This document shows, piece after piece, positions 20,217-34,017 of a DNA stretch of 64,000 nt (its first letter is position 1; every line of letters begins with the position of its first letter). This stretch comes from Candidatus Moraniibacteriota bacterium (lineage in GTDB: Bacteria > Patescibacteriota > Minisyncoccia > Moranbacterales > GWC2-37-73). A program made the translations under genes and the position numbers. The notes under the pieces were generated by a model. It was not told where the DNA came from and ran no database searches. It saw only the letters and a program-made list of their open reading frames with translations. The stretch covers positions 33,221 through 97,220 of the forward strand of contig DAIUDF010000001.1 of the NCBI GenBank assembly GCA_036845785.1. Direction: 5' to 3'.

Positions 20217-20407
20217 ATTGATTTTTTTCGCGGCCAAAGGTTTTTTACTTTGGCACCACGCGATTAATTAAGATAATTTAATTATAAAATTATTGCATCT
20301 GTTTACTATACACTAAATTCCTTTTTCAGGCAAATTTAAAAAATCCGTCTGTGGAAAATTCAATACATGACTCATTCTACACGACCTATAAAATCTGTCA
20401 ACCCCGC

Positions 20408-20473
20408 ACTAACTTTAGGCAAGTGTACAACACTGGATTGCTTTCAGCAAGCCTAAAGTTAGTGCGGGGTCAA
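20408..20473. repeat. hairpin element family E with 12-bp terminal inverted repeats CCCCGCACTAAC/GTTAGTGCGGGG, two copies (20408-20473 and 59746-59810)
   Basis: The arms are identical and the interiors unrelated. One copy sits at the tuf-side edge of the island. Confidence 0.7.
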
Positions 20474-20612
20474 GCCCCCGCCAATTTGGCACTTTTGTCT
20501 TACCTTAGCCAATAACCAACCCTCAGAAAACCTAGGAATTTGAAGATTTTACTCACTATATCCACATTTTTAATACGTAGCGAAGTAAGTATTAAATTAT
20601 TCCGCCCAGAAA

Positions 20613-21032
20613 TTAGATTTTTTTTCTGAAGAAAATTGAAACAATGAAAATTAAAATGAAAAAGATCGAACCCATGACGCATGTCGGCAGGCCGAAGAAA
20701 TATGCGCTCGGTCCATTTTCAAAAAACAAGGACAATTCTCCCCAAGAAAAATAGCCGGCAAAAAGAACTCCCAAAAATGAAAACAAAAATAAAAGATTGG
20801 CCAAACATTTTGTCGCCTGTTCCTTGAAAAAAAGGACGACGGAAAAAATAAAAAGGAGGCAGAACATGACAAAGCCGTAGTAGCAGGCCGGAAAGCCCAG
20901 GAACAGCGGGCAAGTTTCCCCGAAAGCGCAGACAGATGAAAACATTTTGACTCCGCTCATATAGCCGGAAAACAATACTCCGCCCAGCGAAGCCAGCAAA
21001 AAGAAAATTTTAAAATTTTTGTATTTATCCAT
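20613..21032 (-). CDS. hypothetical polytopic membrane protein with internal 2-TM duplication
   Basis: Two repeated LGGVLFSGYMSG / LGVLFAGYFSWG modules, each followed by Cys residues. Start set at MDKYKNF (cat at 21030-21032). Confidence 0.5.
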   Translation of the reverse strand: MDKYKNFKIFFLLASLGGVLFSGYMSGVKMFSSVCAFGETCPLFLGFPACYYGFVMFCLLFIFSVVLFFKEQATKCLANLLFLFSFLGVLFAGYFSWGELSLFFENGPSAYFFGLPTCVMGSIFFILIFIVSIFFRKKI

Positions 21033-21093
21033 TTTATTAAATAAATAATTAATTAAGTAATTATTTCTGATCCGTTTTTCTTTTTTTACAATT

Positions 21094-21588
21094 TTATATT
21101 TCGGCAAAAAATATCATATAATTATGCCCGAATTTCTTGGCGCATTTCGGACAATAGGCATAGTGGATGTAATAATCCTTGGCCTTTTTCCCTGTCTCGG
21201 CCAGATATCCATCCATAACTTTGATAAATTTAGGAATATCATTATAGCCGCCATCAAAAACTCTGGAGATAAAATTTCCGGAAATCACAACGTTGTTTTC
21301 ATCCGGAACGTCTTTTTCCACCGCTACATATATCTCGCCCCTAAAAGGCGTCGGATCGCGGAACAATATCAGGGTGTCTTTTTTGTCCGGCGCGCCCGCC
21401 CCGACCTTTTCCACAGCCGTCCACATTCTGGTTATTTTTTTGCCGATCATCGGCGGAAAAGGGATATGGAAAAACTCCGGCATGGAATCTTTGATGAATT
21501 TTTTATTGTCCCAGCTCAATGTTTGCTTGTCCCATTTTTCTACACTAAATTCGGGACAGCATTCTTGTTTTTGATTTTCGTTGTTCAT
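21094..21588 (-). CDS. hypothetical protein
   Basis: 164-aa ORF. Its conserved GGCGGGGTAAGTAATTAAT leader motif is shared with two other island genes. No confident domain was recognised. Confidence 0.45.
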   Translation of the reverse strand: MNNENQKQECCPEFSVEKWDKQTLSWDNKKFIKDSMPEFFHIPFPPMIGKKITRMWTAVEKVGAGAPDKKDTLILFRDPTPFRGEIYVAVEKDVPDENNVVISGNFISRVFDGGYNDIPKFIKVMDGYLAETGKKAKDYYIHYAYCPKCAKKFGHNYMIFFAEI

Positions 21589-21686
21589 AGTTTTATTAAT
21601 TACGTAATTAATTACTTACCCCGTCAATTATATCTGATCAGAAAATGATTATCTTTATTTTTCCTTTGCTCGATTTTATTTTTTAT

Positions 21687-22964
21687 CTATTTTTTCGCTC
21701 TTTCTGATTGTTTAATTTTATTTATTATTACTTGCATTTTATCCCAATCTTTAAATTTTTTCCTAGTTAAAAAAAATTTTTTTAATTCTTCCTCGGGATT
21801 TACCGCTAAACTATATTTTTTGTGTGTCATTCTTTTTAAAATGCAGTGGATAATATTTCTTTCTGAAGAATAGGTCAGGGATGCCGGCATTTTTAAAATT
21901 GCATTTCTTGTTTCTTTAATATCATTGTCAAAAATCATGGTTAGAGTTTGAAAATTTCTTTTAGAAGTTTGGTAAGACTGATGGAAAAGCGATGGCTGTC
22001 TTAATGCAATTTTAATAAAATCTTCTTTGGAAAGTCCTAATATCTCGACTGAATTTTCAATATTTTTAACAATAGTCATGGGAGATTGATAAAAAAGCTG
22101 TGGATGCTTTAACGCAACTTCCAGAAATTCTTGTTTATCAATGCTTATAAGCTTTGATGTACTTTCAATATTATTATTTATCGTGCTTGGGTTAAGATAA
22201 AGAATTTGAGGAGCTTTAAGAGAGCTTTTTATAAACATCTCTTTTTTGATCCCTAATAATTCGGCCGAATTTTCAGCATTATTATTTATAGTTTCGGGAT
22301 ATTGAACTAAGAGCGATGGTCTTTTAAGAGCTGCGTTGAGAAATTTTTCTCTCGAAATACCCAACAATTTAGCTGAATTTTCGATATTACTATTGATAGT
22401 TTCTGGGAGCATACCAAAAAGTGACGGGTGTTTAATTGCAGCTTTAATAAATTCTTCTTCTGATATTCCTATTAGCTTAGCTGAATTTTTAATATTACTA
22501 TCGATAGTTTCTGGAGATTGACAAAAAAGTTGTGGCGTTTTAAATATGCACTTTTTCCATTCATCTGCTGACACATTAAAATTACGCATACTTCGCAAGA
22601 AATTATATTTGTATTTGTCTGATTTAAGAGTTTCCGGACGACATCTAAGAATTGCTTCGTTTGAAATAATCTTATTTACTTCATCATCTGTGAAAACAAT
22701 TTTTTGTTCTTCTTTTTGATTATCGGCAGGAATAGTTATTTTAAATTCGCAAAAAACTTTCCTCAGCTCAATTTTCCTTCTAGCTTTTGGACCTTGTTGA
22801 CCATTTTCTTGTCTATCTCTTTCTTCTTGCAGCGTTATTTCAGATTGAGCATAATCATCTCTGGAAGGCTCTCCGCTTTCATTTCTTTTCAGCTTCAAAT
22901 CAAGAGCTTTATCTCTTATTACATGTGCCTCATTTTCTGCTTTTTCAAACAAATACTTCTCCAT
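21687..22964 (-). CDS. tandem-repeat protein with about seven 36-aa mTERF-like repeats
   Basis: Repeats of the form F.KAA.KHPSLF.Q.PETINSNIENSAKLLGIS.EEF. The DNA shows matching 108-bp periodicity across 21950-22560. Confidence 0.6.
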   Translation of the reverse strand: MEKYLFEKAENEAHVIRDKALDLKLKRNESGEPSRDDYAQSEITLQEERDRQENGQQGPKARRKIELRKVFCEFKITIPADNQKEEQKIVFTDDEVNKIISNEAILRCRPETLKSDKYKYNFLRSMRNFNVSADEWKKCIFKTPQLFCQSPETIDSNIKNSAKLIGISEEEFIKAAIKHPSLFGMLPETINSNIENSAKLLGISREKFLNAALKRPSLLVQYPETINNNAENSAELLGIKKEMFIKSSLKAPQILYLNPSTINNNIESTSKLISIDKQEFLEVALKHPQLFYQSPMTIVKNIENSVEILGLSKEDFIKIALRQPSLFHQSYQTSKRNFQTLTMIFDNDIKETRNAILKMPASLTYSSERNIIHCILKRMTHKKYSLAVNPEEELKKFFLTRKKFKDWDKMQVIINKIKQSERAKK

Positions 22965-23014
22965 AAAAAATTTACTGTCTGTATTAATTACTTACTCCGC
23001 CAATCAGATTAATT

Positions 23015-23066
23015 ATACAATTCTTGGCTGTTTTTATTATATCACCAAATTAAAAAGGCCGATTTC
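23015..23066 (-). promoter_or_regulatory. conserved promoter/leader element F, two copies (23015-23066 and 24160-24215), with extended -10 TGATATAAT
   Basis: AATTATACAATTCTTGGCTGwTTTTATTATATCACCAAATTAAAAAGGCCG on the plus strand. The minus strand reads ttggTGaTATAATaaaa, then GGCGGGGTAAGTAATTAAT just before the ATG of the lipoprotein and repeat-protein genes. Confidence 0.45.
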
Positions 23067-23101
23067 ACATCCCCCTTCGGCATAAATTCAGGGGGATGTA
23101 A

Positions 23102-23374
23102 TCATTTTTTGCTAAAGAGACTTATCCGACGTTTTTCAACATAGACAATTTGCCACCATTTCTGGCCGATGAAATAGCCCGCAGCTACGCCCAAAAGCAG
23201 AAGGATGAAAGTTAGCATTGGCCAGACATATCCCCCGTTTCCAAGAATTGACGGGCCAGTACCTGATTTCAAAAGACTCTTAATATACCACAATTCCAAT
23301 CCGGCACGAGCAATCACCGAAAGCAGAATAAACAAAACAATGCTGGCAATTAAATATATTGTTTTTTTGGTCAT
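23102..23374 (-). CDS. small two-TM membrane protein
   Basis: 90 aa with two hydrophobic helices. Confidence 0.5.
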   Translation of the reverse strand: MTKKTIYLIASIVLFILLSVIARAGLELWYIKSLLKSGTGPSILGNGGYVWPMLTFILLLLGVAAGYFIGQKWWQIVYVEKRRISLFSKK

Positions 23375-23457
23375 AAATTTAATACCCTTCTTAATAATTA
23401 TAATTAATTTATACTTATTCCGGAATTCTTGAGAATACCGGAATAGTGTAATTTTGA

Positions 23458-24111
23458 TTATTTGTAATTTTTGATCGCTTCGCCTATCTTTATTGCAAAA
23501 TCAATGAATTTTCCGTTCTCAATCGTATTTTTTGAACTTGGCTTGATTGAAATAAATTTTTCCGGACTAAGTACAAAATAAATTTCACTGACAAGATCTC
23601 CTTGTGTAATTACTACATTATCCATAGGAATTTTAGGATTTTTTTCTACCTTATCTCCGGTCTGTTGATAAAAAAGTTTTTGATTTTCAATTTTTAAATA
23701 TTCCAGATTAAACAATAAATATTCCTTATCATTAAGATAATAGGAACAATTATAAAGACTTGCATATTTTGGCAGTTCGATTTTTACTACTTTTTGGCCT
23801 AAGGCATTTTCCACAAATTCTTTAGTAAACTGACCGCAGATATCTTCAACAATATAATAACTTTTGTCCTGACGACTTGGTTCTCCTGGATATTCCACAA
23901 AACAATTTTTAAGACGCTTTCCTGGTTCGCCATAACCTTCTATTGATACATTTTCTTTTTCGCAAGCTCCGTCTAAATTATCTTCAGTTGCTGGGGCTGA
24001 CGCTACACTTTCCGCATTATTATTTTTTTCAGCTTGATTGTTATTTGCACAACCGGAAAGAAAAATGGCTCCAACAATTAACATCGGCAGAATGATTATT
24101 TTTTTGTTCAT
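23458..24111 (-). CDS. putative lipoprotein
   Basis: Signal peptide with an LSGC lipobox. Confidence 0.55.
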   Translation of the reverse strand: MNKKIIILPMLIVGAIFLSGCANNNQAEKNNNAESVASAPATEDNLDGACEKENVSIEGYGEPGKRLKNCFVEYPGEPSRQDKSYYIVEDICGQFTKEFVENALGQKVVKIELPKYASLYNCSYYLNDKEYLLFNLEYLKIENQKLFYQQTGDKVEKNPKIPMDNVVITQGDLVSEIYFVLSPEKFISIKPSSKNTIENGKFIDFAIKIGEAIKNYK

Positions 24112-24265
24112 GGTTTTATTAAATAAATAATTAATTACTTACCCCGCCAAGCATGTTTAATTATACAATTCTTGGCTGATTTTATTATATCACCAAATTA
24201 AAAAGGCCGCTTTTAAACTTGTCTTGCGGCCTTTATAGATTGGAAAAATTTCCTTTTTCAACTCC

Positions 24266-24760
24266 TTACGTCCTTATAATCTTGTCTATAGCCATTTGCT
24301 CAGCGTTTTTGAGGATTTCCTCAATAAAAGGATCCCTGCGAAAAATGAGATGATCGGGCGTGTTATCGAAAACAAATGTTCTCCCAGTGAAAGGAAGAAA
24401 GGTTTCCCATCTATCCCCCTTAATCTGCATCGGGACTCCTCTCGTCGATTCAAGACCGCATTCTGCTGCAATTTTTTCTACCGCATCCCTACATTCAGCA
24501 GGGACGCTCATTACAGTCCAAATTTTTTTAGCCCAACGGATCGTGTGCATGAAAAAAAGCGCGCTCTGTTGGCTTTGCGGATTGAAATGCTTATGCTTCA
24601 CAGTCAGCATGCATTCCCTGATGCCAGGCGTATATGGTTCTTCTAATCCTACATACTGAATGAATCGCTTATTATTCAAAAGATCATTAAATTCTTCAGT
24701 CATAATGCCTATTGCCTGGGTTTTTGTTTCTTTTTTTAACAAGCTCTTCAATCGTATCAT
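24266..24760 (-). CDS. hypothetical protein
   Basis: 164-aa ORF with locally higher GC than its neighbours. No domain was recognised. Confidence 0.45.
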   Translation of the reverse strand: MIRLKSLLKKETKTQAIGIMTEEFNDLLNNKRFIQYVGLEEPYTPGIRECMLTVKHKHFNPQSQQSALFFMHTIRWAKKIWTVMSVPAECRDAVEKIAAECGLESTRGVPMQIKGDRWETFLPFTGRTFVFDNTPDHLIFRRDPFIEEILKNAEQMAIDKIIRT

Positions 24761-24895
24761 TTGAACCTCCTTTCATTAAATATTTGAGAGTTATTTTCTT
24801 TTTATAAGTTGTTAAAGAAGTGTTAAAAATATCACCACCTGTACATACCTAGGTACGCTCGCCCCGTAGCAAGCGAAGCTTTGCTTCTGGGGTAA

Positions 24896-25474
24896 TTAAT
24901 TATTTATTCTTTCAATCTCTTTTAACAAAAAATTTAAATCTTTTGACAATGGATTTCCTTTCCATCTTTTCAGGATTGATTTGATAGCCATTTGCTGATG
25001 ATTTAAGATTTTTTCTTTTGGCGCATTAAATCTGGCAAAAACTTCCTCTCTGTAACGATTATAATCATCCAACAATTCAGAAACGTTAGCAATAATATCA
25101 GCCGATTTAATTAGTAAAGAATCATGCGAAAAATTCTTTATGTGTTCCAATGCTTGCTTTTTCCTTTCCTCCCATGGTAATTTTTTCTCAATCTCTGTTA
25201 CACTCAAAACTCCTCTTGCAACTTTTTTACCGAATCTTTCTTCCAGCATTTTGGCATTTACTTTTTTCTGATCTATAGAATCCTCAATCGTATCGTGCAA
25301 AATTCCAGCCACAACTATGTCTTCTTTGGCTTTGATCAGTGAGAGGATAATCCCTACAGTTAATGGATGGGTTATATATGCGATATCTTTGCCTTTTCTT
25401 TTTTGCTTCTGATACACTTCGTGTGTTTTAGTGGCAAATTTTATCGCCTTTTGTATTTTTGGAGTATAGATCAT
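24896..25474 (-). CDS. HD-domain metal-dependent phosphohydrolase
   Basis: ITHPLTV...AGILHDTIED matches the HD motif. Confidence 0.7.
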   Translation of the reverse strand: MIYTPKIQKAIKFATKTHEVYQKQKRKGKDIAYITHPLTVGIILSLIKAKEDIVVAGILHDTIEDSIDQKKVNAKMLEERFGKKVARGVLSVTEIEKKLPWEERKKQALEHIKNFSHDSLLIKSADIIANVSELLDDYNRYREEVFARFNAPKEKILNHQQMAIKSILKRWKGNPLSKDLNFLLKEIERINN

Positions 25475-25571
25475 AATTTATTGTATACTTAGAATACTTT
25501 AAATTTTTTTGCATTCACCTCCCCCTTCGGCATAAATTCAGAGGTACGTAATTAATTACGTAAATTCAAAT

Positions 25572-26591
25572 TTATTCCTCATTATTTCTAATTCTTCCCC
25601 AATTTATTCTATCCAATTCTGGTTTTAATCTTGATACTAATAAATCTAATCTATCCAAAATTTCATTCACATCTTCTTGATCAAATTCAATTTTATTTGT
25701 TGTAGAATAAACATTATATAATTTTGACCAATTTTTGCCCCACTTAGCTTTTAACTTAAAAATTTTATCACTCTTAGATAAATCTTTTTGCACATTCTTC
25801 ATTATTTTAAGTAATTTATTTCTTCTTTTCTTAGTAAAATCATGAATCAAATGGGATTTAGCAAATTCAACATGAAAAGCTATTTCAAACTGCGCTTTAT
25901 CGCTTGCTTTAGTTATTTTTTTAGAAGTTATTTCAAAATGTAAAAATGGATTTCCTATTTTTTCTTTAATTTGAATCATATGTCTAAACTGAGTCCTGTT
26001 TTCCATTAGTCCTTCAGCAATTGGCTGATTTAAAAATTTATTTAGAATTTCTTGTAAAATTTGCTCTCTGGTATAAATTTTTCTCAACTTAATTAGCAGC
26101 GGTTTAGCTGGAATACCTAATTCACATTTTTTACTATTCGCAAAAAAAACTCCTATAGAAGATCCGAAATCACCTAGATTTTTTAACATTAATTTAGCCG
26201 AAGGTAATAATTTGTCCTTTTTTTCTAGAGGTAAAGTTACAAAAAAACAAGCACGGATGGCTTTATTTTCAAGAAAAGTTGAAACATCTTCTAGCTCCAA
26301 TCTTTCTTGTTGAGTTATTTTTTCAAGAAATTCATAACCTTTCTCCTGGATAACTGACATATAGGCAATAAGCTGGCCAACTGCATGGCCGATCGAAGCA
26401 ACATTTCCAGATCTTTTCCCTTCACTAATATAGAAACATTTTTCGTTTTGATTATAGGCCAGAACATCAAGGAAGCCAGCTGAAAATTTAAATTCCGTAA
26501 CAGAAAAATTACATTTGAATTTACTTTTGAAATAATTTTTAGTCGGCTGATTTAATTGTTTGTCTTCTGGGTTGTTCATAAGTTCTGGCAA
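25572..26591 (-). CDS. hypothetical protein with N-terminal PD-(D/E)xK nuclease-like motif
   Basis: FLDVLAY...ISEGK fits a D...ExK arrangement. It is the last gene of a tightly packed six-gene operon. Confidence 0.45.
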   Translation of the reverse strand: MPELMNNPEDKQLNQPTKNYFKSKFKCNFSVTEFKFSAGFLDVLAYNQNEKCFYISEGKRSGNVASIGHAVGQLIAYMSVIQEKGYEFLEKITQQERLELEDVSTFLENKAIRACFFVTLPLEKKDKLLPSAKLMLKNLGDFGSSIGVFFANSKKCELGIPAKPLLIKLRKIYTREQILQEILNKFLNQPIAEGLMENRTQFRHMIQIKEKIGNPFLHFEITSKKITKASDKAQFEIAFHVEFAKSHLIHDFTKKRRNKLLKIMKNVQKDLSKSDKIFKLKAKWGKNWSKLYNVYSTTNKIEFDQEDVNEILDRLDLLVSRLKPELDRINWGRIRNNEE

Positions 26592-26607
26592 GTAATTAAT
26601 TACGTAA

Positions 26608-26793
26608 TTATCTATTATATTTTTTATTACAAGATGGACAATATTTCCAATTTCCTGTTATCTTAACACCACAAATACATTTTCTCATTCCATATCTCGC
26701 CTTATTTTCTTTTTGCACTTTTTCCCAGCAGTCATTACAATATATACTTTTTATATACTTTGATTGATAACCACATTTTCTACATTTTCCCAT
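26608..26793 (-). CDS. small zinc-ribbon protein
   Basis: 61 aa containing CxxC...CxxC...CxC...CxxC. Confidence 0.5.
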   Translation of the reverse strand: MGKCRKCGYQSKYIKSIYCNDCWEKVQKENKARYGMRKCICGVKITGNWKYCPSCNKKYNR

Positions 26794-26808
26794 AAATTTT
26801 TTATCCTA

Positions 26809-27912
26809 TTATTTCCCCGATTTAGTTCGATTGTCTTGTTTGCAAAGCATCTGACAATTTTCAGCAATTGTTTTTCCGCCCTCATGCCAAGGTTTGATAT
26901 GATCAGCTTCCATCTCGCCTATTTTAAAATGTTCACTGCATTTCGGACAAATTCCATTTTGTCTTTCATAAGCTTCACGCTTCATTTTGTCAGTAAACGC
27001 CCGAATCGAAAGATATTTTTCCTGTCTGGTTAAAACATACGGATAAATTCCGGATTTTTTCGTCACATCTTCATCCTGCATTAAATCTTTGATTTCGGTT
27101 TCAAGTTTTTTAGTATCTAGTTTTTTATCTTTAAATTCATTATATAATTCACCCCACTGCACGTTTTTCATTTCTTTGCGATAATTTATGAAAGTTTTTC
27201 TGGCCCACTCAATAACATTTTGAAAATATTCCCACAATTCTTCGGCATTTTTGTCGTGCTGATGTTTGGCCATATAGTCTTCAATTTTTCCATCATTTAT
27301 CCATGAAATTGCAGTTTCTAAATATTCTTGCCGAATTGGCGAACCACTAACTAACCCACCTCCATCATTGGCCAGAAGATAAGCTGCGCAATTTGATTTA
27401 CTGAATTTTAGTTTTGCATCAGAAAGCCACGGACCAGTATAGACAGCATTTCTAAGTTCTTGGTCAGTCAATTTCTCGCCGGCAATATTAATAATTTTAA
27501 ACCAATCTAATCGCTCTTTGTCACTGCCTTCGCAAAAATAGATCATGAGTTCATAATTCAGAATCTGTTCTTGTTCTTCTTTGGTTAGATTGTGAAACGC
27601 AGCTAGTCTACCGTTGAATTCAACAGAATAATTACCTTCTTTATATTCCGCAATACTAATTGTTCTTTGTTGACCATCAAGCACTTCAAAATTTCCCTGA
27701 TCAGTTTTGACCCAATACATTACATTAAGTGGAAAACTGTTTTTGATTGTTTCAATCACAGCATCGCGCTGTTTGCCGGTGTATACAAACTCCCGTTGAT
27801 ATTTCGGACGAATATCCAACTTGCCGCCATAAGCCACCACGCCTTCTTCGTGACTGTCCTTATAGCCATTGATAACGTCCCGCACCGAAATTCTTTGTAG
27901 TTCAATTTTCAT
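26809..27912 (-). CDS. DUF262 (ParB-like, DGQQR) plus HNH nuclease, GmrSD/SspE-like defense nuclease candidate
   Basis: VLDGQQRTISI is the DUF262 hallmark. The C-terminal ADHIKPWHEGGKTIAENCQMLCKQDNRTK is an HNH motif. Confidence 0.75.
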   Translation of the reverse strand: MKIELQRISVRDVINGYKDSHEEGVVAYGGKLDIRPKYQREFVYTGKQRDAVIETIKNSFPLNVMYWVKTDQGNFEVLDGQQRTISIAEYKEGNYSVEFNGRLAAFHNLTKEEQEQILNYELMIYFCEGSDKERLDWFKIINIAGEKLTDQELRNAVYTGPWLSDAKLKFSKSNCAAYLLANDGGGLVSGSPIRQEYLETAISWINDGKIEDYMAKHQHDKNAEELWEYFQNVIEWARKTFINYRKEMKNVQWGELYNEFKDKKLDTKKLETEIKDLMQDEDVTKKSGIYPYVLTRQEKYLSIRAFTDKMKREAYERQNGICPKCSEHFKIGEMEADHIKPWHEGGKTIAENCQMLCKQDNRTKSGK

Positions 27913-27918
27913 ATTATT

Positions 27919-28413
27919 TTAATTTTTGAAATAATTGTTATCAATAATAAATTGGTTGACTTTTTGACTTATTTTTTCAATAACTTCTAATTTTGGCATT
28001 TTTTTATATCCATACATCATTTCTAATAACATTTCATCTGAAAAATAATCAAATCCTTTTTTAAAATATAATTTATTAACATTTTTAAGATTTTTTTTGT
28101 CTTTCTTTGAAAAAATATTAATAAATAATAATTCAAATTCTTTAATTACTTTCTCTAAATTATGCTTGATACTTATTGCTAAAAAACGTTTTTTAGACTT
28201 AGTGCATTCTTTGCTTAAAATTGCTGCTTTCAATCCCCTTTCTATTGAAGATAAATACATAGAATATTTAGCTAACGAAAAATGCTTTTGCTTGTATGAT
28301 TCTGCCGAATTATGAAAATCGTCTGAAATTTTGGCTAGCATATAAGGAGTAATCGAAATAGCTAAAGGATCGCATTTTATTAAACAATGTTTATTCTTAA
28401 CTTGTAGTTTCAT
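27919..28413 (-). CDS. hypothetical protein (operon member)
   Basis: 164 aa, very AT-rich, 6 bp downstream of the preceding gene. Confidence 0.45.
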   Translation of the reverse strand: MKLQVKNKHCLIKCDPLAISITPYMLAKISDDFHNSAESYKQKHFSLAKYSMYLSSIERGLKAAILSKECTKSKKRFLAISIKHNLEKVIKEFELLFINIFSKKDKKNLKNVNKLYFKKGFDYFSDEMLLEMMYGYKKMPKLEVIEKISQKVNQFIIDNNYFKN

Positions 28414-28451
28414 AAAATTCCTTATTATTTTTTTATTTTTAATTAAAATAT

Positions 28452-28730
28452 CTAATCAATTTTAAATAGAGATTTAAAATTATCTACTAAATCAATTTTA
28501 TAAATGAACGCTGTGACAGATAAAATAAGTGCTAATATTGAGATTATTAAAGATGCTAATGAAATTTTTTTCTGATAACCAGTTATATGCTTATTCATTT
28601 CTAATTGCAGTCTATTTGAATGGCTTAGCCATAAGCCGCATTTTTTACATTCGGAAACCCCTGGCCCATCTCTTCCATCATAAGTTAAAATTCTCCAATC
28701 ATGCTTACAATTTAGTTGATCTTTTGACAT
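28452..28730 (-). CDS. small zinc-ribbon protein with C-terminal TM helix
   Basis: CKHDW...CKKCG followed by a hydrophobic helix. Confidence 0.45.
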   Translation of the reverse strand: MSKDQLNCKHDWRILTYDGRDGPGVSECKKCGLWLSHSNRLQLEMNKHITGYQKKISLASLIISILALILSVTAFIYKIDLVDNFKSLFKID

Positions 28731-28753
28731 AGATATTTTTAATTATCGGACAA

Positions 28754-29818
28754 CTATTTTTTCACTTTCTTATTTTTAATTAATATACGTCGAAATAACA
28801 TTTTTCCATTTATAGTAAAGTCTTTATCTCCATTTTTTCCTGTATATCTATCTAATCCTATTATTTCAAATTGACTAGGATTATGATAATTAAGAAAAGT
28901 AATTGGCACACCCATTACTCCATCATAATCCATAGGAATATCAATATATCTATTTACATTAATCCCATTATAATTATCATATTTTAAATATTCTTTAGGG
29001 TTATATTTTTTATATAATGTGAGATCTTTGTGACGACTAGCAACATCAAGATTGGTATACCAATTAACACTTCCCATGCTGAAATATTTCACTCCGTTAA
29101 CAATTTTCTTCCTCGATTCCGTAGGAATATCATAATCCATTGGGACTTGAAACCATTTTGTTCCACCATTATCATATCCAAGCCAAACTTTATTTTCTTT
29201 TATCAAAGGAAAAAATTCTTTATAAATCACTGCGCCTTGCTGACCTAATATTAAAAAATTTTTATTATGTTTTACTAATTGATCTACATATTCCCTAAAC
29301 AATGAAAACGGCGGATTAGTGACAACCATGTCCGCTTGTTTTAACAGCTCTATACTTTCTTGACTTCTAAAATCCCCTTCTCCCTGGAGCGGCGCCCATT
29401 CATTATTTTTATTGTCTTTGAGTTGCTGGGCAATATCATTCAAATCAAAAGCTCCGTTATTATCAAGATCACCAACTTCATTAATAATAAATTTGTTAGC
29501 AGTTGTTTTTGGGCGGCCCTTTTTTACTGTAAGTGTTTTGTCATCGCCAAATAGGCTAAGTTGAGTGTTGGCAATCGGCGATGGCTTATAGCTGGTAGCC
29601 ATAAGTTTTTTCAAACCCAAAGCATTGAAATTTGATGCAAAATATTTGAAAAAATTACTTTCAAACGGATCGTCGCAATTACAATAAACCACTTTCCCAC
29701 GAAACTGGTCTTTATAATGCATGAGTTCCTTTTCAATATCAACCAGCTGAGTGTAAAACTCATCTTTTTTGGCCTTGTTTGCCTTGTGCAAGTTTTTATT
29801 CGACGATTTATTTTCCAT
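28754..29818 (-). CDS. N6-adenine DNA methyltransferase (NPPF motif, gamma-type order)
   Basis: DEFYTQ N-terminal motif, CNCDDPFESNFF (motif I-like), and VVTNPPF (motif IV). Confidence 0.7.
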   Translation of the reverse strand: MENKSSNKNLHKANKAKKDEFYTQLVDIEKELMHYKDQFRGKVVYCNCDDPFESNFFKYFASNFNALGLKKLMATSYKPSPIANTQLSLFGDDKTLTVKKGRPKTTANKFIINEVGDLDNNGAFDLNDIAQQLKDNKNNEWAPLQGEGDFRSQESIELLKQADMVVTNPPFSLFREYVDQLVKHNKNFLILGQQGAVIYKEFFPLIKENKVWLGYDNGGTKWFQVPMDYDIPTESRKKIVNGVKYFSMGSVNWYTNLDVASRHKDLTLYKKYNPKEYLKYDNYNGINVNRYIDIPMDYDGVMGVPITFLNYHNPSQFEIIGLDRYTGKNGDKDFTINGKMLFRRILIKNKKVKK

Positions 29819-29994
29819 AATTTTATAAAAACTAATTTTCCTTTAAATAAAGCAATTTTTCTTGATTTTTGAAAATTATCCACAGGGGCTTGAAATAATT
29901 ATAAGAATATGGTAGTATCTATACATAGACAAGTAAATTCCTTATGCGTGGGGTTCCGGATGGTTCCTCTTAAATAGCGCATAAGGTTTTGTTT

Positions 29995-30633
29995 TTATGG
30001 GAATAATGGACTTTCTTCAACGATTTTCTGCCTTATTAAATTATAATAGCTCTCATCTCCTAATTCTTTTTTCTTATATATCGCCCAGCAAATAAAATCA
30101 ACCGCCTGCAAGCACTTTTCAGCTTCAGGTGTTTTTATTTTTACACAAATATCAAGTTTATGATTATTCTTAACCTGATTTTCTAAATAATTTTTAAAAT
30201 TATCATTAAGAAATCTGTTTGTTTCACGCCTAGAAGCTATTAAAATTATTGGCGAATCTAGTGAAATAAGTTTTTTGGTGAATATTCTATCCAATAATAT
30301 ATTAGAAACATAATTATAAAGGACGTGTTTTTCATCTCTGAGTTTGGTATATACTTTCGCCTTATTTAGATGTATGGAAAGAACTGAAATATCTTTTTCA
30401 TTTAGCATTCCCAATGTTTTTATAATTGTCTTTGGTTTTTCTTTGCAAGCATGCAAAATTCCGACATGCTTTTTAAGCTCCTTCTTGCTTAAATTTCTAG
30501 CAACTTTTTTAATTACTTTTTCTACAGGACCTTTATTTTTAACAAATAAAAAAGTAACCACAAAAAATTTTGAAGATTTCTTGTTCGAATCAAATCCTAA
30601 GTCTCCACTTTCATCCAAAAATATATATGCCAT
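29995..30633 (-). CDS. DUF3800 family protein
   Basis: MAYIFLDESGDLG N-terminal signature. Confidence 0.65.
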   Translation of the reverse strand: MAYIFLDESGDLGFDSNKKSSKFFVVTFLFVKNKGPVEKVIKKVARNLSKKELKKHVGILHACKEKPKTIIKTLGMLNEKDISVLSIHLNKAKVYTKLRDEKHVLYNYVSNILLDRIFTKKLISLDSPIILIASRRETNRFLNDNFKNYLENQVKNNHKLDICVKIKTPEAEKCLQAVDFICWAIYKKKELGDESYYNLIRQKIVEESPLFP

Positions 30634-30750
30634 TTTTTATTTTCCCCAATCCACGTAAAACAATTTCATTATCACGTGGCTGTGCTTTAATTATTTTTTT
30701 GAATAATAATCCTTAATCATCAGCCCACCCCGGTTAAATACGATTTGAGC

Positions 30751-31809
30751 CTATTTTCTAAAAACATAGGCGGAGGCGGGACCTTTGCCTACTTGTTTTA
30801 TTGACCCGATTTTTTTGAGTTTTTGAAGATGCAACTGAGCTGTCCTCTTGGGACAATTCAGAATATCAACCACATCGTTCACGTTTATTTTTCCAAGCTT
30901 ATCCAAAAAATCCAAAATTTTCATCTGATCCTTGTCCAGATAGATTTGCGAATTAACATCCGCATCAATTTTCATGGCGGAAAGCGAGATTATTTTGTTT
31001 TTGACATTGTCAATTTCCTCTTTGAAACCTTTGGAGAAATATTCCAGCCATAAAGTGAAATCAGTTTTTCTTTCATCATAAGTCTTGCCTATATTGATAG
31101 CTTTATAATATCGTTGTCTATCTTTGTTGTAATAATCTTCCAAAGCAAAAAGTTTTCTGAAGTCATAGCCCCGCTTATAGAGAATAAGAGTGGCCAACGC
31201 CCTGGCTGTCCTGCCATTGCCATCATTGAATGGATGGATGGCAGCAATTTCCTGATGGGCTATGCCAGCCACAATGATCGGGCTAGTGTCTTTTTTCTTA
31301 CTATCTTCTATCCAAGAAATAAGATCAGCGCAAAGTTTCGGAACTTTCTTGGCATCCGGGCCTGTATACATAACCTCATTAGGAAAGCCTAAGCGCCTTC
31401 TGACGATATAGACCGGACCTTTTCTGTAGTGTCCTGACGATTCCTCATCCAATGTTTTGTCTGTAACTAATTTATGTATTTTAAGCAAAACTTTTTCGGT
31501 AATCGCCTGCTTTTTTTTGACGACTTGCTCGATATATTTCAAAGCATTGAGATAATTTTGCACTTCAAAAATTTCTCTCTGGGGAGCATCCACTTTTTTC
31601 CGGCCAACTAAAGCTTCAACTTCGTGCATATTGAGCTGGTTGCCTTCAATGGCAGTTGAGCTATGAGTCATCCTGATCAAAGCTTGCCGGCGCAATTTCA
31701 GCTCATTTTTAGGAAGAATCTTGGCTCGCTCAATAACTGCCTTGGCCTCAGCCACCGCAGTCAACATTTTTACAATATTGTCAGTAATTTTATATTTTGG
31801 ATTAAACAT
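30751..31809 (-). CDS. fic: Fic-family protein (AMPylator-type) with C-terminal wHTH
   Basis: HPFNDGNGRTARA matches the HxFx(D/E)GNGRxxR Fic motif. Confidence 0.85.
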   Translation of the reverse strand: MFNPKYKITDNIVKMLTAVAEAKAVIERAKILPKNELKLRRQALIRMTHSSTAIEGNQLNMHEVEALVGRKKVDAPQREIFEVQNYLNALKYIEQVVKKKQAITEKVLLKIHKLVTDKTLDEESSGHYRKGPVYIVRRRLGFPNEVMYTGPDAKKVPKLCADLISWIEDSKKKDTSPIIVAGIAHQEIAAIHPFNDGNGRTARALATLILYKRGYDFRKLFALEDYYNKDRQRYYKAINIGKTYDERKTDFTLWLEYFSKGFKEEIDNVKNKIISLSAMKIDADVNSQIYLDKDQMKILDFLDKLGKINVNDVVDILNCPKRTAQLHLQKLKKIGSIKQVGKGPASAYVFRK

Positions 31810-31910
31810 ATCGATATAGAAAGTATAGCATGTTTTTGATAATCACGCAATAATCGCGCAAAGAATCGCGCAAAGTTTTTTTCGCCCACTTTCGGAATTC
31901 TATATTTATT

Positions 31911-31985
31911 ATTTTTTTGAATAATAATCCTTAATCATCAGCCCGCCCCAGTTAAATATCGCTTCGCTATTTAACGGGGTAAACC
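31911..31985. repeat. palindromic element family G (ccccGTTAAATA...TATTTAACgggg). Copies at 30688-30750 (degenerate), 31911-31985, 32724-32800, 33260-33320, 42481-42540 and 48313-48362 (inside comEC)
   Basis: Three copies share the upstream TTTTTTGAATAATAATCCTTAATCATCAGCCCGCCCC block plus a 12-bp-stem hairpin. All six carry the GTTAAAT/ATTTAAC arms. Confidence 0.8.
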
Positions 31986-32165
31986 TTATCTTTTTTTCCA
32001 GTCCCTTATTACAAAACCGCCCTTAATTTTTTTAACGGTTATTTTTTGCCGCTCCTTCCACCCCAGTTCCCTAACAACTTCAATAGGCAGAGTTAAACCG
32101 ATTGAGTGTTTTCCAATTTTTGTTAATTTTCGCACATTTTTTTCGTTTGATTTTTTGTTTGCCAT
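31986..32165 (-). CDS. AbrB/MazE/SpoVT-type swapped-hairpin small DNA-binding protein (antitoxin-like), 59 aa
   Basis: Complement translates to MANKKSNEKNVRKLTKIGKHSIGLTLPIEVVRELGWKERQKITVKKIKGGFVIRDWKKR. It is absent from the ORF track, presumably because it is under 60 aa. Confidence 0.6.
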   Translation of the reverse strand: MANKKSNEKNVRKLTKIGKHSIGLTLPIEVVRELGWKERQKITVKKIKGGFVIRDWKKR

Positions 32166-32199
32166 ATTTTTTTGTTGCTACTTATAATTCTAATAAAAT

Positions 32200-32646
32200 T
32201 TATCGAACCTTTGCGAAAAGATAAACATCATAATATTTCCCGTTTTTGCAGACTTCTTTCCTTAATATTCCCTCCAACTTAAATTTATTCTTCTCCAAAA
32301 CTCTTGCCGATGCTTTATTCGGGAGATACACCTTTGCTGTAACTCTTTTTAATTTTAATTTGTCAAAACATAGCTTCACCAGCTCTCTTGTGACCTCGGT
32401 AATCAAACCTTTGCCCCAATGCTTTTTTGCCAGCCAGTAACCGATCTCCGCCTGATGCCCGTTTCTATGTATTCCGCAACTGCCAGCAACTTCACCTTCA
32501 ATTTCAATGGCAAGGTTTACCCTGTCCTTCCTTTTTAGGTTAAGTGCTTTTTTCAGAAAAATATTCGCTTCTTTGGATCCGTAAGGATACGGCACTACTG
32601 ACATATAGCGGCCAATGTCGGGATCATTTATATTTTTTATCAGCAC
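32200..32646 (-). CDS. GNAT N-acetyltransferase (RimJ/RimL-like)
   Basis: GIHRNGHQAEIGYWLAKKHWGKGL...ARVLEKNKFKLEG acetyl-CoA-binding region. Confidence 0.8.
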   Translation of the reverse strand: MLIKNINDPDIGRYMSVVPYPYGSKEANIFLKKALNLKRKDRVNLAIEIEGEVAGSCGIHRNGHQAEIGYWLAKKHWGKGLITEVTRELVKLCFDKLKLKRVTAKVYLPNKASARVLEKNKFKLEGILRKEVCKNGKYYDVYLFAKVR

Positions 32647-32783
32647 ATCCTTATCTGTTTTTTTGTAATTTCTGATTATAAACCGCTTGGTTTTGATCGG
32701 CTTGATTTTCGTATATTTATGTTAATTATTTTTTGAATAATAATCCTTAATCATCAGCCCGCCCCCGGTTAAATATCGCTTCG

Positions 32784-33224
32784 CTATTTAACAGGGTAAA
32801 TCTTCCTTACATTTTCTTTGTTTGGTTCTTCGTTTGGTTCTTTGTTTTCCTTACGTCTTCCCCTGGATTCAAGCTCTAGCACAACTGCTTCATAGTACGC
32901 AGGATGACTTTTTATTTTAGTTTCATCTGCAGCTATTATGATATCCATCAATTCTATACTTGATGCATCATGCACAAGAGCTCTGCGTTTTTGAACATTT
33001 TCAGAACTTATAGCACCTGGGCTTGAATGCCTCAAACTAATCAGGGTTTCAACTACCCATTCCTTATTTTCTAAGTATTTTTTACATTTTTCATCTAAAA
33101 AAGCTTTCTCTTCAGCTGAAAGTTTATATTTTTTATCACTCGTATTTCTTGTTTCTTCTTGATTAGCTTTTTTTATTTCTGCTTTTCGACCCGATGGAAC
33201 CGGGAATTGTATTAATTCTCCCAT
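32784..33224 (-). CDS. hypothetical protein (cassette)
   Basis: 146-aa ORF bounded by palindromic repeat copies. Confidence 0.4.
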   Translation of the reverse strand: MGELIQFPVPSGRKAEIKKANQEETRNTSDKKYKLSAEEKAFLDEKCKKYLENKEWVVETLISLRHSSPGAISSENVQKRRALVHDASSIELMDIIIAADETKIKSHPAYYEAVVLELESRGRRKENKEPNEEPNKENVRKIYPVK

Positions 33225-33349
33225 AATTTTATTTTATTAAATAATTTATTTTTTACTTTTAAAATCTCTCACTACCAACGCACCCCCAGTTAAATATCGC
33301 TTCACTATTTAACGGGGCAAGCGTACTTCAATTCTACGCCTAAAAATCC

Positions 33350-33396
33350 CCCTTAGCAAAAGAAAAAGGCTTGGCGACACAATCGTCACCAAGCCT
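33350..33396 (-). terminator. intrinsic terminator after 33409..33828
   Basis: ggcttggcgacacaatcgtcaccaagcc hairpin followed by a T-run on the minus strand. Confidence 0.6.
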
Positions 33397-33408
33397 TCGG
33401 TTTATTTG

Positions 33409-33828
33409 TTACGGAAAATCTATAAGACTCTCCACTTTTCCCTTGAGATAATTCAGGCCCTTTTCATCAATGAAGACGTTTGATTCTTTATCAAACATGG
33501 CAATCCAATCTTCAGGGTATTTGAAAGCAGCAAGTTTTTCCAGAGCTTCTTTCTCTTCAGGACTGCCCTTTTTGGTTTCCTGATAAGCCAAAAGTGTCTC
33601 TTCGACATCTTTGGCTTTATCCAGCATTTTTTTGAGAATAATTTTGAGAAGGCGTTCCCGGTATTTGTCTTTTTCATAAAAACGTACAACTTTGGTATAT
33701 ATGCCCTCCCAATCGTTGAAATCGAATTTGTCTTTGGCTTCTTTTGAAAGTTTGCCTAGATACATGGTACGCGTCCGGCTCACTCCAACTTTGCGTGCAA
33801 ATTTTTCAAATGGTATTTTATTATCCAC
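33409..33828 (-). CDS. hypothetical protein with possible N-terminal HTH
   Basis: FEKFARKVGVSRTRT is HTH-like. An intrinsic terminator lies just downstream. Confidence 0.45.
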   Translation of the reverse strand: MDNKIPFEKFARKVGVSRTRTMYLGKLSKEAKDKFDFNDWEGIYTKVVRFYEKDKYRERLLKIILKKMLDKAKDVEETLLAYQETKKGSPEEKEALEKLAAFKYPEDWIAMFDKESNVFIDEKGLNYLKGKVESLIDFP

Positions 33829-33961
33829 TTTAAACCCTCCAATATAGAATTGTTGCCTTCAATGTGATTAGAAATAAAAATTTTTACCCACCTCCTTGTG
33901 CTGAATTATCATCTTAAAGAACAACAGCAATATATTACATCTTCTATGACTGTTGTCAAGC

Positions 33962-33990
33962 CATAAAAAACAGCCCCGAAGGGCTGCTTT
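33962..33990 (-). terminator. intrinsic terminator after fusA (island boundary)
   Basis: cagccccgaagggctg hairpin followed by T6 on the minus strand. Confidence 0.65.
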
Positions 33991-34017
33991 TGTAAAAAGT
34001 ATTCAAATTTCTATAAG

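Follow-up and report, generated by a model that had tools for sequence, protein, structure and literature searches.

DNA methyltransferase (MTase) genes that are packed together with nuclease genes invite comparison with Type II restriction-modification (RM) systems, with the modification-dependent Type IV enzymes related to GmrSD, and with single defence genes that reside within RM loci. Type IV enzymes are normally solitary, and a nuclease dependent on N6-methyladenine (m6A) would self-destruct if it were encoded beside an m6A MTase. The nuclease domain of the RM-embedded protein PrrC belongs to the HEPN superfamily. PrrC has been cited as being embedded almost exclusively in Type I RM systems, and a recent survey of DUF262 systems names only GmrSD, SspE, PD-T4-2, Dazbog and Menshen. 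Here, we consider a block of six minus-strand open reading frames (ORFs) at positions 25572-29818 of a 64,000-nucleotide stretch of DNA, referred to as the window, from a Candidatus Moraniibacteriota bacterium (assembly GCA_036845785.1, contig DAIUDF010000001.1, positions 33,221 to 97,220). An initial annotation, made from the letters alone, had proposed that the six genes constitute a single new defence operon. We now favour, at a probability of roughly 0.8, that the block is a composite: a two-gene Type II RM system, formed by the MTase gene M and the nuclease gene R, is accompanied by four unrelated and independent cargo genes, p92, p164, p61 and p339, each named after the length of its product in amino acids.

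Results

M and R form a widespread two-gene cassette

Only M and R are linked across genomes. The block was compared with 80 loci from other species, namely the best by similarity to the restriction endonuclease (REase) R, in which the six proteins and four neighbours were sought by tblastn, and with 19 viral contigs from IMG/VR. In 78 of the 80 species loci and in all 19 viral contigs, i.e., in 97 of 99 loci combined, M immediately precedes R on the same strand. The other four genes, p92, p164, p61 and p339, were detected by tblastn at none of the 80 species loci and are likewise absent from the 19 viral ones. Because these four are unlinked at all homologous loci, the proposal of one conserved six-gene system is unsupported for four of its six members. 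Plasmids of four other phyla (Proteobacteria, Firmicutes, Actinobacteria and Bacteroidetes), hosted by Aeromonas, Macrococcoides, Chryseobacterium, Sulfitobacter, Gordonia, Variovorax, Enterococcus and Ligilactobacillus, likewise encode the DUF262 protein. In most of the listed records, an 'adenine-specific methyltransferase EcoRI family protein' is annotated next to it, and on the Aeromonas plasmid the M and R genes overlap by one base. The arrangement is thus the one expected of Type II RM, with a separate endonuclease gene adjoining the MTase gene in conserved linkage.

M (354 amino acids; 29818-28754, minus strand) is the first ORF of the block and is, judging from its sequence, a gamma-class N6-adenine DNA methyltransferase of the EcoRI family. 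It matches Pfam EcoRI_methylase (PF13651) at 7e-130 over profile positions 1-345 of 345 and PADLOC MTase_II at 2e-122 over its full length. The motifs that the initial annotation had pointed out can all be read in the translations: DEFYTQ, DPF and NPPF in M, DGQQR and HNH in R, the eight cysteines of p61 and D42...E57-x-K59 in p339. With NPPF, DPF and a match along the entire profile, M has the features of an S-adenosylmethionine-dependent MTase with catalytic motif IV, as is characteristic of Type II RM. Residues 19-354 share 48% identity with an MTase of E. coli that is encoded on a 4-kb plasmid and adjoins a gene annotated as 'type-2 restriction enzyme EcoRI', which argues that M is a true EcoRI-family enzyme. 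At two related loci (L020, 58-1127; L063, 6326-6787) the MTase is apparently interrupted, with the N-terminal ~160 amino acids and the C-terminal part in separate ORFs and R intact; the M genes there may be pseudogenes or subject to phase variation, or the breaks may stem from errors in assembly. Avoidance of palindromic sites, assessed for the window and for pooled loci amounting to 1.1 Mb, was uninformative, since only GGCC was outlying, GAATTC was mildly low (ratio 0.76-0.79) and no adenine-containing candidate for the recognition site emerged. Speculatively, M and R may target GAATTC or a related site.

R (367 amino acids; 26809-27912, minus strand), the restriction subunit and second core gene, is composed, by its sequence, of an N-terminal DUF262 domain, a ParB/Srx-like NTPase, and a classical HNH domain. 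Pfam GmrSD_N matches at 9.5e-18 and HNH (PF01844) at 1.8e-11 over residues 322-365; the DGQQR motif is present as VLDGQQRT, and the cysteines and histidines of the HNH domain are in place. Residues 1-367 align end to end with positions 1-372 of the PADLOC model REase_II (PDLC03418, 3e-144). Pfam and PADLOC searches thus return strong rather than spurious matches for both proteins, and because M and R match PADLOC Type II models at full length, they represent an ordinary Type II RM pair. The earlier statement that the genes correspond to no described RM layout does not hold for these two. A sequence search of the PDB with R returned generic HNH domains as the nearest entries and no characterised pair of a DUF262-HNH nuclease with an M.EcoRI-family enzyme.

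Might R instead be a modification-dependent Type IV enzyme of the GmrSD kind, with the adjacent M not being its protective partner? The DUF262 domain with its DGQQR motif is common to GmrSD, BrxU and SspE, and NsnA and PD-T4-2_A appear as secondary PADLOC matches of R. We regard this possibility as very remote, however, because the order M-to-R is near-universal, with a stop/start overlap or a spacer of one nucleotide, because R has no DUF1524 match in Pfam while the REase_II model covers it at full length, and because the usual solitary habit of Type IV enzymes and the expected self-destruction beside an m6A MTase argue against it.

Homologues of R fall into more than 8000 clusters at E<1e-10, which is a lower bound, and relatives were confirmed in 571 GTDB species. 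The top 120 clusters are 79-100% identical, and every source name listed for them belongs to the Patescibacteria group; one protein with 100% identity is attributed in NCBI to a Candidatus Moranbacteria metagenome-assembled genome. In the 71 loci with both genes complete, the median pairwise identity is 79% for R versus 65.5% for M, and R exceeds M in 97.6% of locus pairs; the difference is partly inflated because the 80 loci were picked by similarity to R. Greater conservation of R than of M is the opposite of the usual RM pattern. The REase of a distant Parcubacteria genome (L062) is 81% identical to R of the window, a value equal to that of EF-Tu (81%) and above that of EF-G (63%).

The M-R junction is a recurrent insertion slot

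In 52 of the 78 linked species loci, the stop codon of M overlaps the start codon of R or lies within 5 nt of it. The typical junction reads ...AAAAATAA-T-ATGAAAAT... (i.e., AAAAATAA-T-ATG, or stop-1 nt-start), and this tight arrangement suggests that translation of R is coupled to that of the upstream gene. In another 24 of the 78 loci, the junction holds inserts of 352-1873 bp, most of which contain same-strand ORFs that are mutually unrelated. Among their products are RhuM (PDC-S05, 9e-145), an OLD-like AAA_15 ATPase (5e-50), T5orf172 (PDC-S57, 2e-56), PDC-S13 (6e-78), a SoFic-like Fic protein (L045), a trypsin-like protease, PDC-S32 (a weak match), DUF2130, several proteins with an N-terminal transmembrane (TM) segment, and proteins without assignment. 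The DUF2130 gene in the slot of two metagenome-assembled genomes (L009, 1793-3080; L010, 413-1700) is split into two overlapping ORFs in a frameshift-like manner, and its sequence is identical in both.

The inserts are placed with some precision. Of the 19 insert loci that could be scored, 7 show an exact repeat of the 3' end of M in the 6-9 nt directly before the ATG of R, compared with 0.2% of control ATGs, and about four further insert loci show a near-repeat that differs by a single base. The window follows the same pattern: M ends in ...AAAAAATAG-T, and the sequence before R is ...TAAAATAAT. The hexamer AATAAT immediately 5' of the R start codon (27918-27913, minus strand) looks, by comparison of junctions across loci, like the remnant of an M-stop/R-start junction. 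Because the window conforms to the junction pattern of insert loci, p92 and p164 can be said to occupy the recurrent slot (27913-28753).

No comparable regularity is found on the other side of R. None of the genes downstream of R is conserved among the loci, as 52 first-downstream ORFs fall into 45 unrelated clusters, some of them with defence functions (AbiP2 reverse transcriptase, OLD/Gabija/PARIS-like ATPases, Zeta toxin, NYN and GmrSD) and others with housekeeping ones.

The cargo genes belong to families with other partners

p164 (28413-27919, minus strand), located between M and R, adopts the helical-bundle fold of the HEPN superfamily and is possibly an RNase. Its relatives form just eight clusters in 5.8 billion proteins, with E58, G60, K62, H84, N113, Y116, K119 and G120 invariant. 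The canonical R-x4-6-H motif is not visible in the alignment of eight sequences, and a non-canonical site is possible. In two other lineages, relatives of p164 lie between M and R of the same RM family, next to different co-inserted genes; others are found between the mod and res genes of Type III systems, and one (L099) adjoins RhuM with no RM system nearby. PrrC-like proteins carry an ABC-type ATPase fused to the nuclease; p164 is a single HEPN domain with no ATPase match.

p339 (26591-25572, minus strand) follows the RM genes and consists of an N-terminal PD-(D/E)xK domain and one or more alpha/beta domains at the C terminus. Its relatives form 31 clusters with invariant D42, E57-x-K59, H69 and Q73xxxY77. 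The structure model (mean predicted local distance difference test, pLDDT, 88.6) matches PaqCI, Shedu SduA, NucS, N.BspD6I, HamA and FokI, so that the N-terminal domain combines a restriction-endonuclease-like fold with the D...(D/E)xK residues; fold and invariant catalytic residues hence agree with the initial call of a PD-(D/E)xK-like protein. The similarity to PADLOC family PDC-S18 is partial, extending from residues 11-89 over positions 23-97 of a 302-position profile (E 1e-5). One relative of p339 resides inside a Type I operon of the order hsdM-p339-x-hsdS-x-hsdR, two directly follow Type III-like res genes, and one (L090) is part of a non-RM island with SIR2 and DUF2326 genes. The loci that harbour p164 or p339 relatives (L092, 7744-8587; L088, 8978-9784; L090) also contain SocA_Panacea, AbiEii, SIR2_2 and CTD10-MC6-DUF2326, and such neighbours reinforce the defence-island context of both families.

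The two small proteins are more elusive. p92 (28730-28452, minus strand), also between M and R, has a zinc ribbon (C8-x-H10...C28-x2-C31) and a C-terminal TM helix, i.e., it is tail-anchored. It finds no match in Pfam, PADLOC, NCBIfam or PHROG, and a search of 1.84 billion proteins at E<=1e-3 gives a family of 30 representatives, in which H10, W12, C28 and C31 are invariant and C8 is nearly so. The family alignment is too divergent for a pattern scan; two relatives were seen in their genomic context, one of them obtained by the single-sequence scan, and neither is located beside an RM system. p61 (26793-26608, minus strand), located after R, is a mini-protein whose eight cysteines form a double zinc-ribbon pattern, with sub-threshold Pfam matches to DZR and zinc-ribbon families at 1e-3; neither the metagenome scan nor any of the related loci yielded a relative. 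The loci with p164 or p339 relatives share no small partner, and the pairings p92-p164 and p61-p339 were not seen elsewhere. A role as controller (C) protein was considered for the small ORFs and rejected, as none has a helix-turn-helix match and most loci lack them.

Conceivably, the four extra ORFs have no part in defence and are debris of mobile elements, regulators of R expression or, in the case of p61, non-coding. The lack of p61 relatives, the position of both p92 relatives outside RM loci and the failure of all four ORFs to reach a curated family threshold would fit such a view. We nevertheless hold it to be improbable: the families of p164, p339 and p92 are conserved, with invariant residues and folds that are modelled confidently, the great majority of p164 and p339 contexts are defence loci, the M-R slot is elsewhere filled with recognised defence candidates, and no integrase or transposase gene is present within the block. 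A prophage origin was likewise discarded, as PHROGs returned only generic HNH and MTase matches.

A palindrome, TACGTAATTAATTACGTA, is found on both sides of p339 and argues for a separation of this gene from the RM genes. The upstream copy (26589-26606) lies between p61 and p339 and a perfect 18-bp copy (25545-25562) between the p339 stop codon and an HD-domain gene. Further copies are located at 24892-24903, 24124-24141 and 21601-21618 in intergenic spacers of the surrounding island. The core GTAATTAATTAC occurs five times in the window versus 0.31 expected, always in consecutive intergenic spacers between 21.6 and 26.6 kb, and three times the palindrome is positioned 10-13 nt upstream of a start codon. 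It is found neither in the M-p92-p164-R part nor at the loci of other species, and is thus private to the source organism. It could serve as an operator or mark the boundary of a cassette.

Layout and genomic setting of the block

The six ORFs are present on the minus strand as initially annotated, with gaps of 6-38 bp; from M to p339 the spacers measure 23, 38, 6, 15 and 16 bp. The true start of p339 is likely the ATG at 26579, giving a protein of 335 amino acids, because public gene callers use this codon and the family alignment fits it; the last spacer, between p61 and p339, would then be 28 bp. Minus-strand terminator-like sites were not found inside the block, which makes co-transcription of the six ORFs plausible. 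A promoter scan gave 44 matches versus 32 expected and is uninformative in DNA of such AT content. The block has a GC content of 0.304, compared with 0.374 for the window, and the description of it as the most AT-rich stretch proved largely accurate: the lowest of all 1-kb bins (28001-29000, GC 0.242) lies inside it, and the 4.2-kb interval of lowest GC (0.299) begins at 24771 and so largely overlaps it. Among the individual genes, those of the cargo are lowest in GC (0.23-0.29), below M (0.32) and R (0.37).

The single strand, the short spacers and the lack of predicted internal terminators are what one would expect if all six genes encoded one new multi-component defence system, in which two nucleases act with two zinc-ribbon adaptors. 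The same block is also present on 11 public contigs, apparently from the same or near-identical organisms. Such a system is nevertheless hardly credible, given that the four genes are absent from every one of the 99 loci and do not co-occur outside the source organism, that the p92, p164 and p339 families have different partners elsewhere, that M-R is complete and compact in most genomes without the four, and that the palindrome separates p61 from p339 and recurs before unrelated downstream genes. Tight spacing on one strand is thus not evidence of a single system, and the 'six-gene operon' is better described as a mosaic.

The block is part of a ~13.8-kb variable island of low GC (window 20217-34017; 0.333 versus 0.386 elsewhere) that splits rpsL-rpsG-fusA from tuf-rpsJ-rplC of the str/S10 ribosomal-protein gene cluster. 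In the distant Parcubacteria genome L062 (5430-13354), the same RM family is found between fusA and tuf; the fusA-tuf spacer may for this reason be a recurrent integration hotspot in Patescibacteria. Other genes of the island encode a small HD_4 hydrolase and the following proteins. Directly upstream of the RM genes (29995-31809) are a DUF3800 protein and a 352-amino-acid Fic protein with a C-terminal winged-helix region, which matches PADLOC SoFic at 2e-57. A GNAT acetyltransferase (148 amino acids) is followed by a 59-amino-acid ORF (31986-32646), which we take by eye to be AbrB/SpoVT-like, and the two may form a GNAT-type toxin-antitoxin pair. A 425-amino-acid repeat-built protein (21687-22964) is assigned to Pfam mTERF in the public gene calls of the contig. 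The mTERF (mitochondrial transcription termination factor) family is mainly eukaryotic, and its occurrence in bacteria is unusual.

Discussion

The analysis shows the domain identities and folds of the block's products, and it shows that M is linked with R whereas the four remaining genes are not. How might the composite work? We envision that M methylates adenine at a specific target site of the host and that R cuts DNA without this mark. The linkage of R to a cognate MTase implies that modification would block cutting and not trigger it. R would probably use its ParB-like DUF262 domain as an NTP-dependent module that engages DNA, and its HNH domain for cleavage. The cargo is located in two places, p92 and p164 in the M-R junction and p61 and p339 after R, and it would borrow the transcription and expression context of the RM genes while acting alone and not as RM subunits. 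Most likely, the cargo would comprise stand-alone abortive-infection or second-line defence genes, i.e., a HEPN protein and a PD-(D/E)xK DNase.

Several points weigh against this composite of independent parts. Functional coupling between cargo and RM would fit the tight spacing and the lack of internal terminators just as well. Relatives of p164 are situated between modification and restriction genes in four of five contexts, which could reflect a specific functional dependence on RM and not opportunistic insertion. In the absence of an obvious Rx4-6H motif, p164 may not be a nuclease. Loci more distant than the best 80 were sampled solely via viral contigs and plasmids, the PADLOC name REase_II is an annotation and not proof of activity, and neither a REBASE prototype nor a biochemical description of a DUF262-HNH/EcoRI-family pair was found in the literature.

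Alternatively, p164 (perhaps with p92) and/or p339 may act as guards that stay latent as long as the RM system is intact and fire once a phage anti-restriction factor disables it, for which PrrC in the Type Ic system EcoprrI provides a precedent. Such a dependence would account for the placement of p164 relatives in two different RM types and for that of p339 relatives, which are embedded in or right after Type I or Type III RM in three of five contexts seen elsewhere, and the HEPN fold of p164 is in keeping with it. We consider it unlikely, if an alternative to be reckoned with, since p164 has neither an ATPase or sensor domain nor a clear Rx4-6H motif, since a p164 relative (L099) and a p339 relative (L090) are found away from RM genes, since the differing RM types of the hosts make a specific protein-protein interface unlikely, and since about two thirds of the loci contain no insert at all. 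A bolder scheme, which we put forward with considerable doubt, would join the guards to the slot: the junction AAAAATAAT-ATG would serve as an integrase-free cassette site into which single-gene abortive-infection modules are swapped by recombination and translated in line with R, and p164, perhaps also p339, would depend on the RM system and act as a guard once restriction has been neutralised. If true, cassette slot and guards would endow the genome-reduced Patescibacteria with a compact two-layer immunity.

Under the composite reading that we prefer, the locus still has implications beyond this organism. In Patescibacteria, the combination of a DUF262-HNH nuclease with an EcoRI-family MTase ranks with the most widespread of RM cassettes, and it extends to plasmids and viral contigs of other phyla, and its likely NTPase domain makes R an unusual Type II enzyme. 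The precise and often duplicated coupling junction hints at a route by which cargo is captured. Two rare families, the HEPN protein p164 and the PD-(D/E)xK protein p339, are nominated as defence candidates.

How does the locus compare with described systems? As in EcoRI-type Type II RM, the locus has a two-gene M+R cassette with full-length profile matches, and this cassette occurs on chromosomes as well as on plasmids and viral contigs; in contrast to EcoRI-type RM, R has a DUF262+HNH architecture instead of the PD-(D/E)xK fold of R.EcoRI and is more conserved than M. The initial annotation had likened R to GmrSD, BrxU and SspE. This comparison stands for the N-terminal DUF262 domain with its DGQQR nucleotide-hydrolysis motif and for a His-Me finger nuclease at the C terminus, but not for the remainder: the nuclease is a zinc-binding HNH (PF01844) and not a DUF1524 domain after a long helical linker, the protein has 367 instead of ~600 amino acids, and it is no solitary modification-dependent enzyme, given the MTase directly upstream in nearly all loci. 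From minimal HEPN proteins (HEPN/MNT toxins, AbiV and the nuclease domains of PrrC and RloC), p164 differs in having no MNT partner, ABC ATPase or evident Rx4-6H motif. Unlike the PD-(D/E)xK effectors Shedu SduA, Hachiman HamA, Cap4, NucC and Can2, p339 has unassigned alpha/beta C-terminal domains, no partner in the form of a helicase or cyclic-nucleotide sensor, and no sequence-level membership in these families.

The closest parallel to the arrangement as a whole is provided by the defence genes embedded in RM, BREX, DISARM and Hma systems ('guilt-by-embedding'; Payne et al., 2024), including PrrC in EcoprrI, where unrelated single genes are likewise nested on the same strand between the genes of restriction subunits. 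The PDC families S05 (RhuM), S13, S57 and, weakly, S32 occupy the slot in sister loci, and p339 partly resembles PDC-S18. In contrast to the systems surveyed there, the host is here a minimal two-gene Type II RM, the insertion occurs at a precise, often duplicated stop/start junction, and PADLOC does not list the p164 and p339 families as such. No description was found in the literature of genes nested at the precise coupling junction of a minimal Type II pair, of the p164 family or of the p339 family. Thus, the RM pair itself is a recognised Type II system, and the p164 and p339 cargo that it carries are new candidates.

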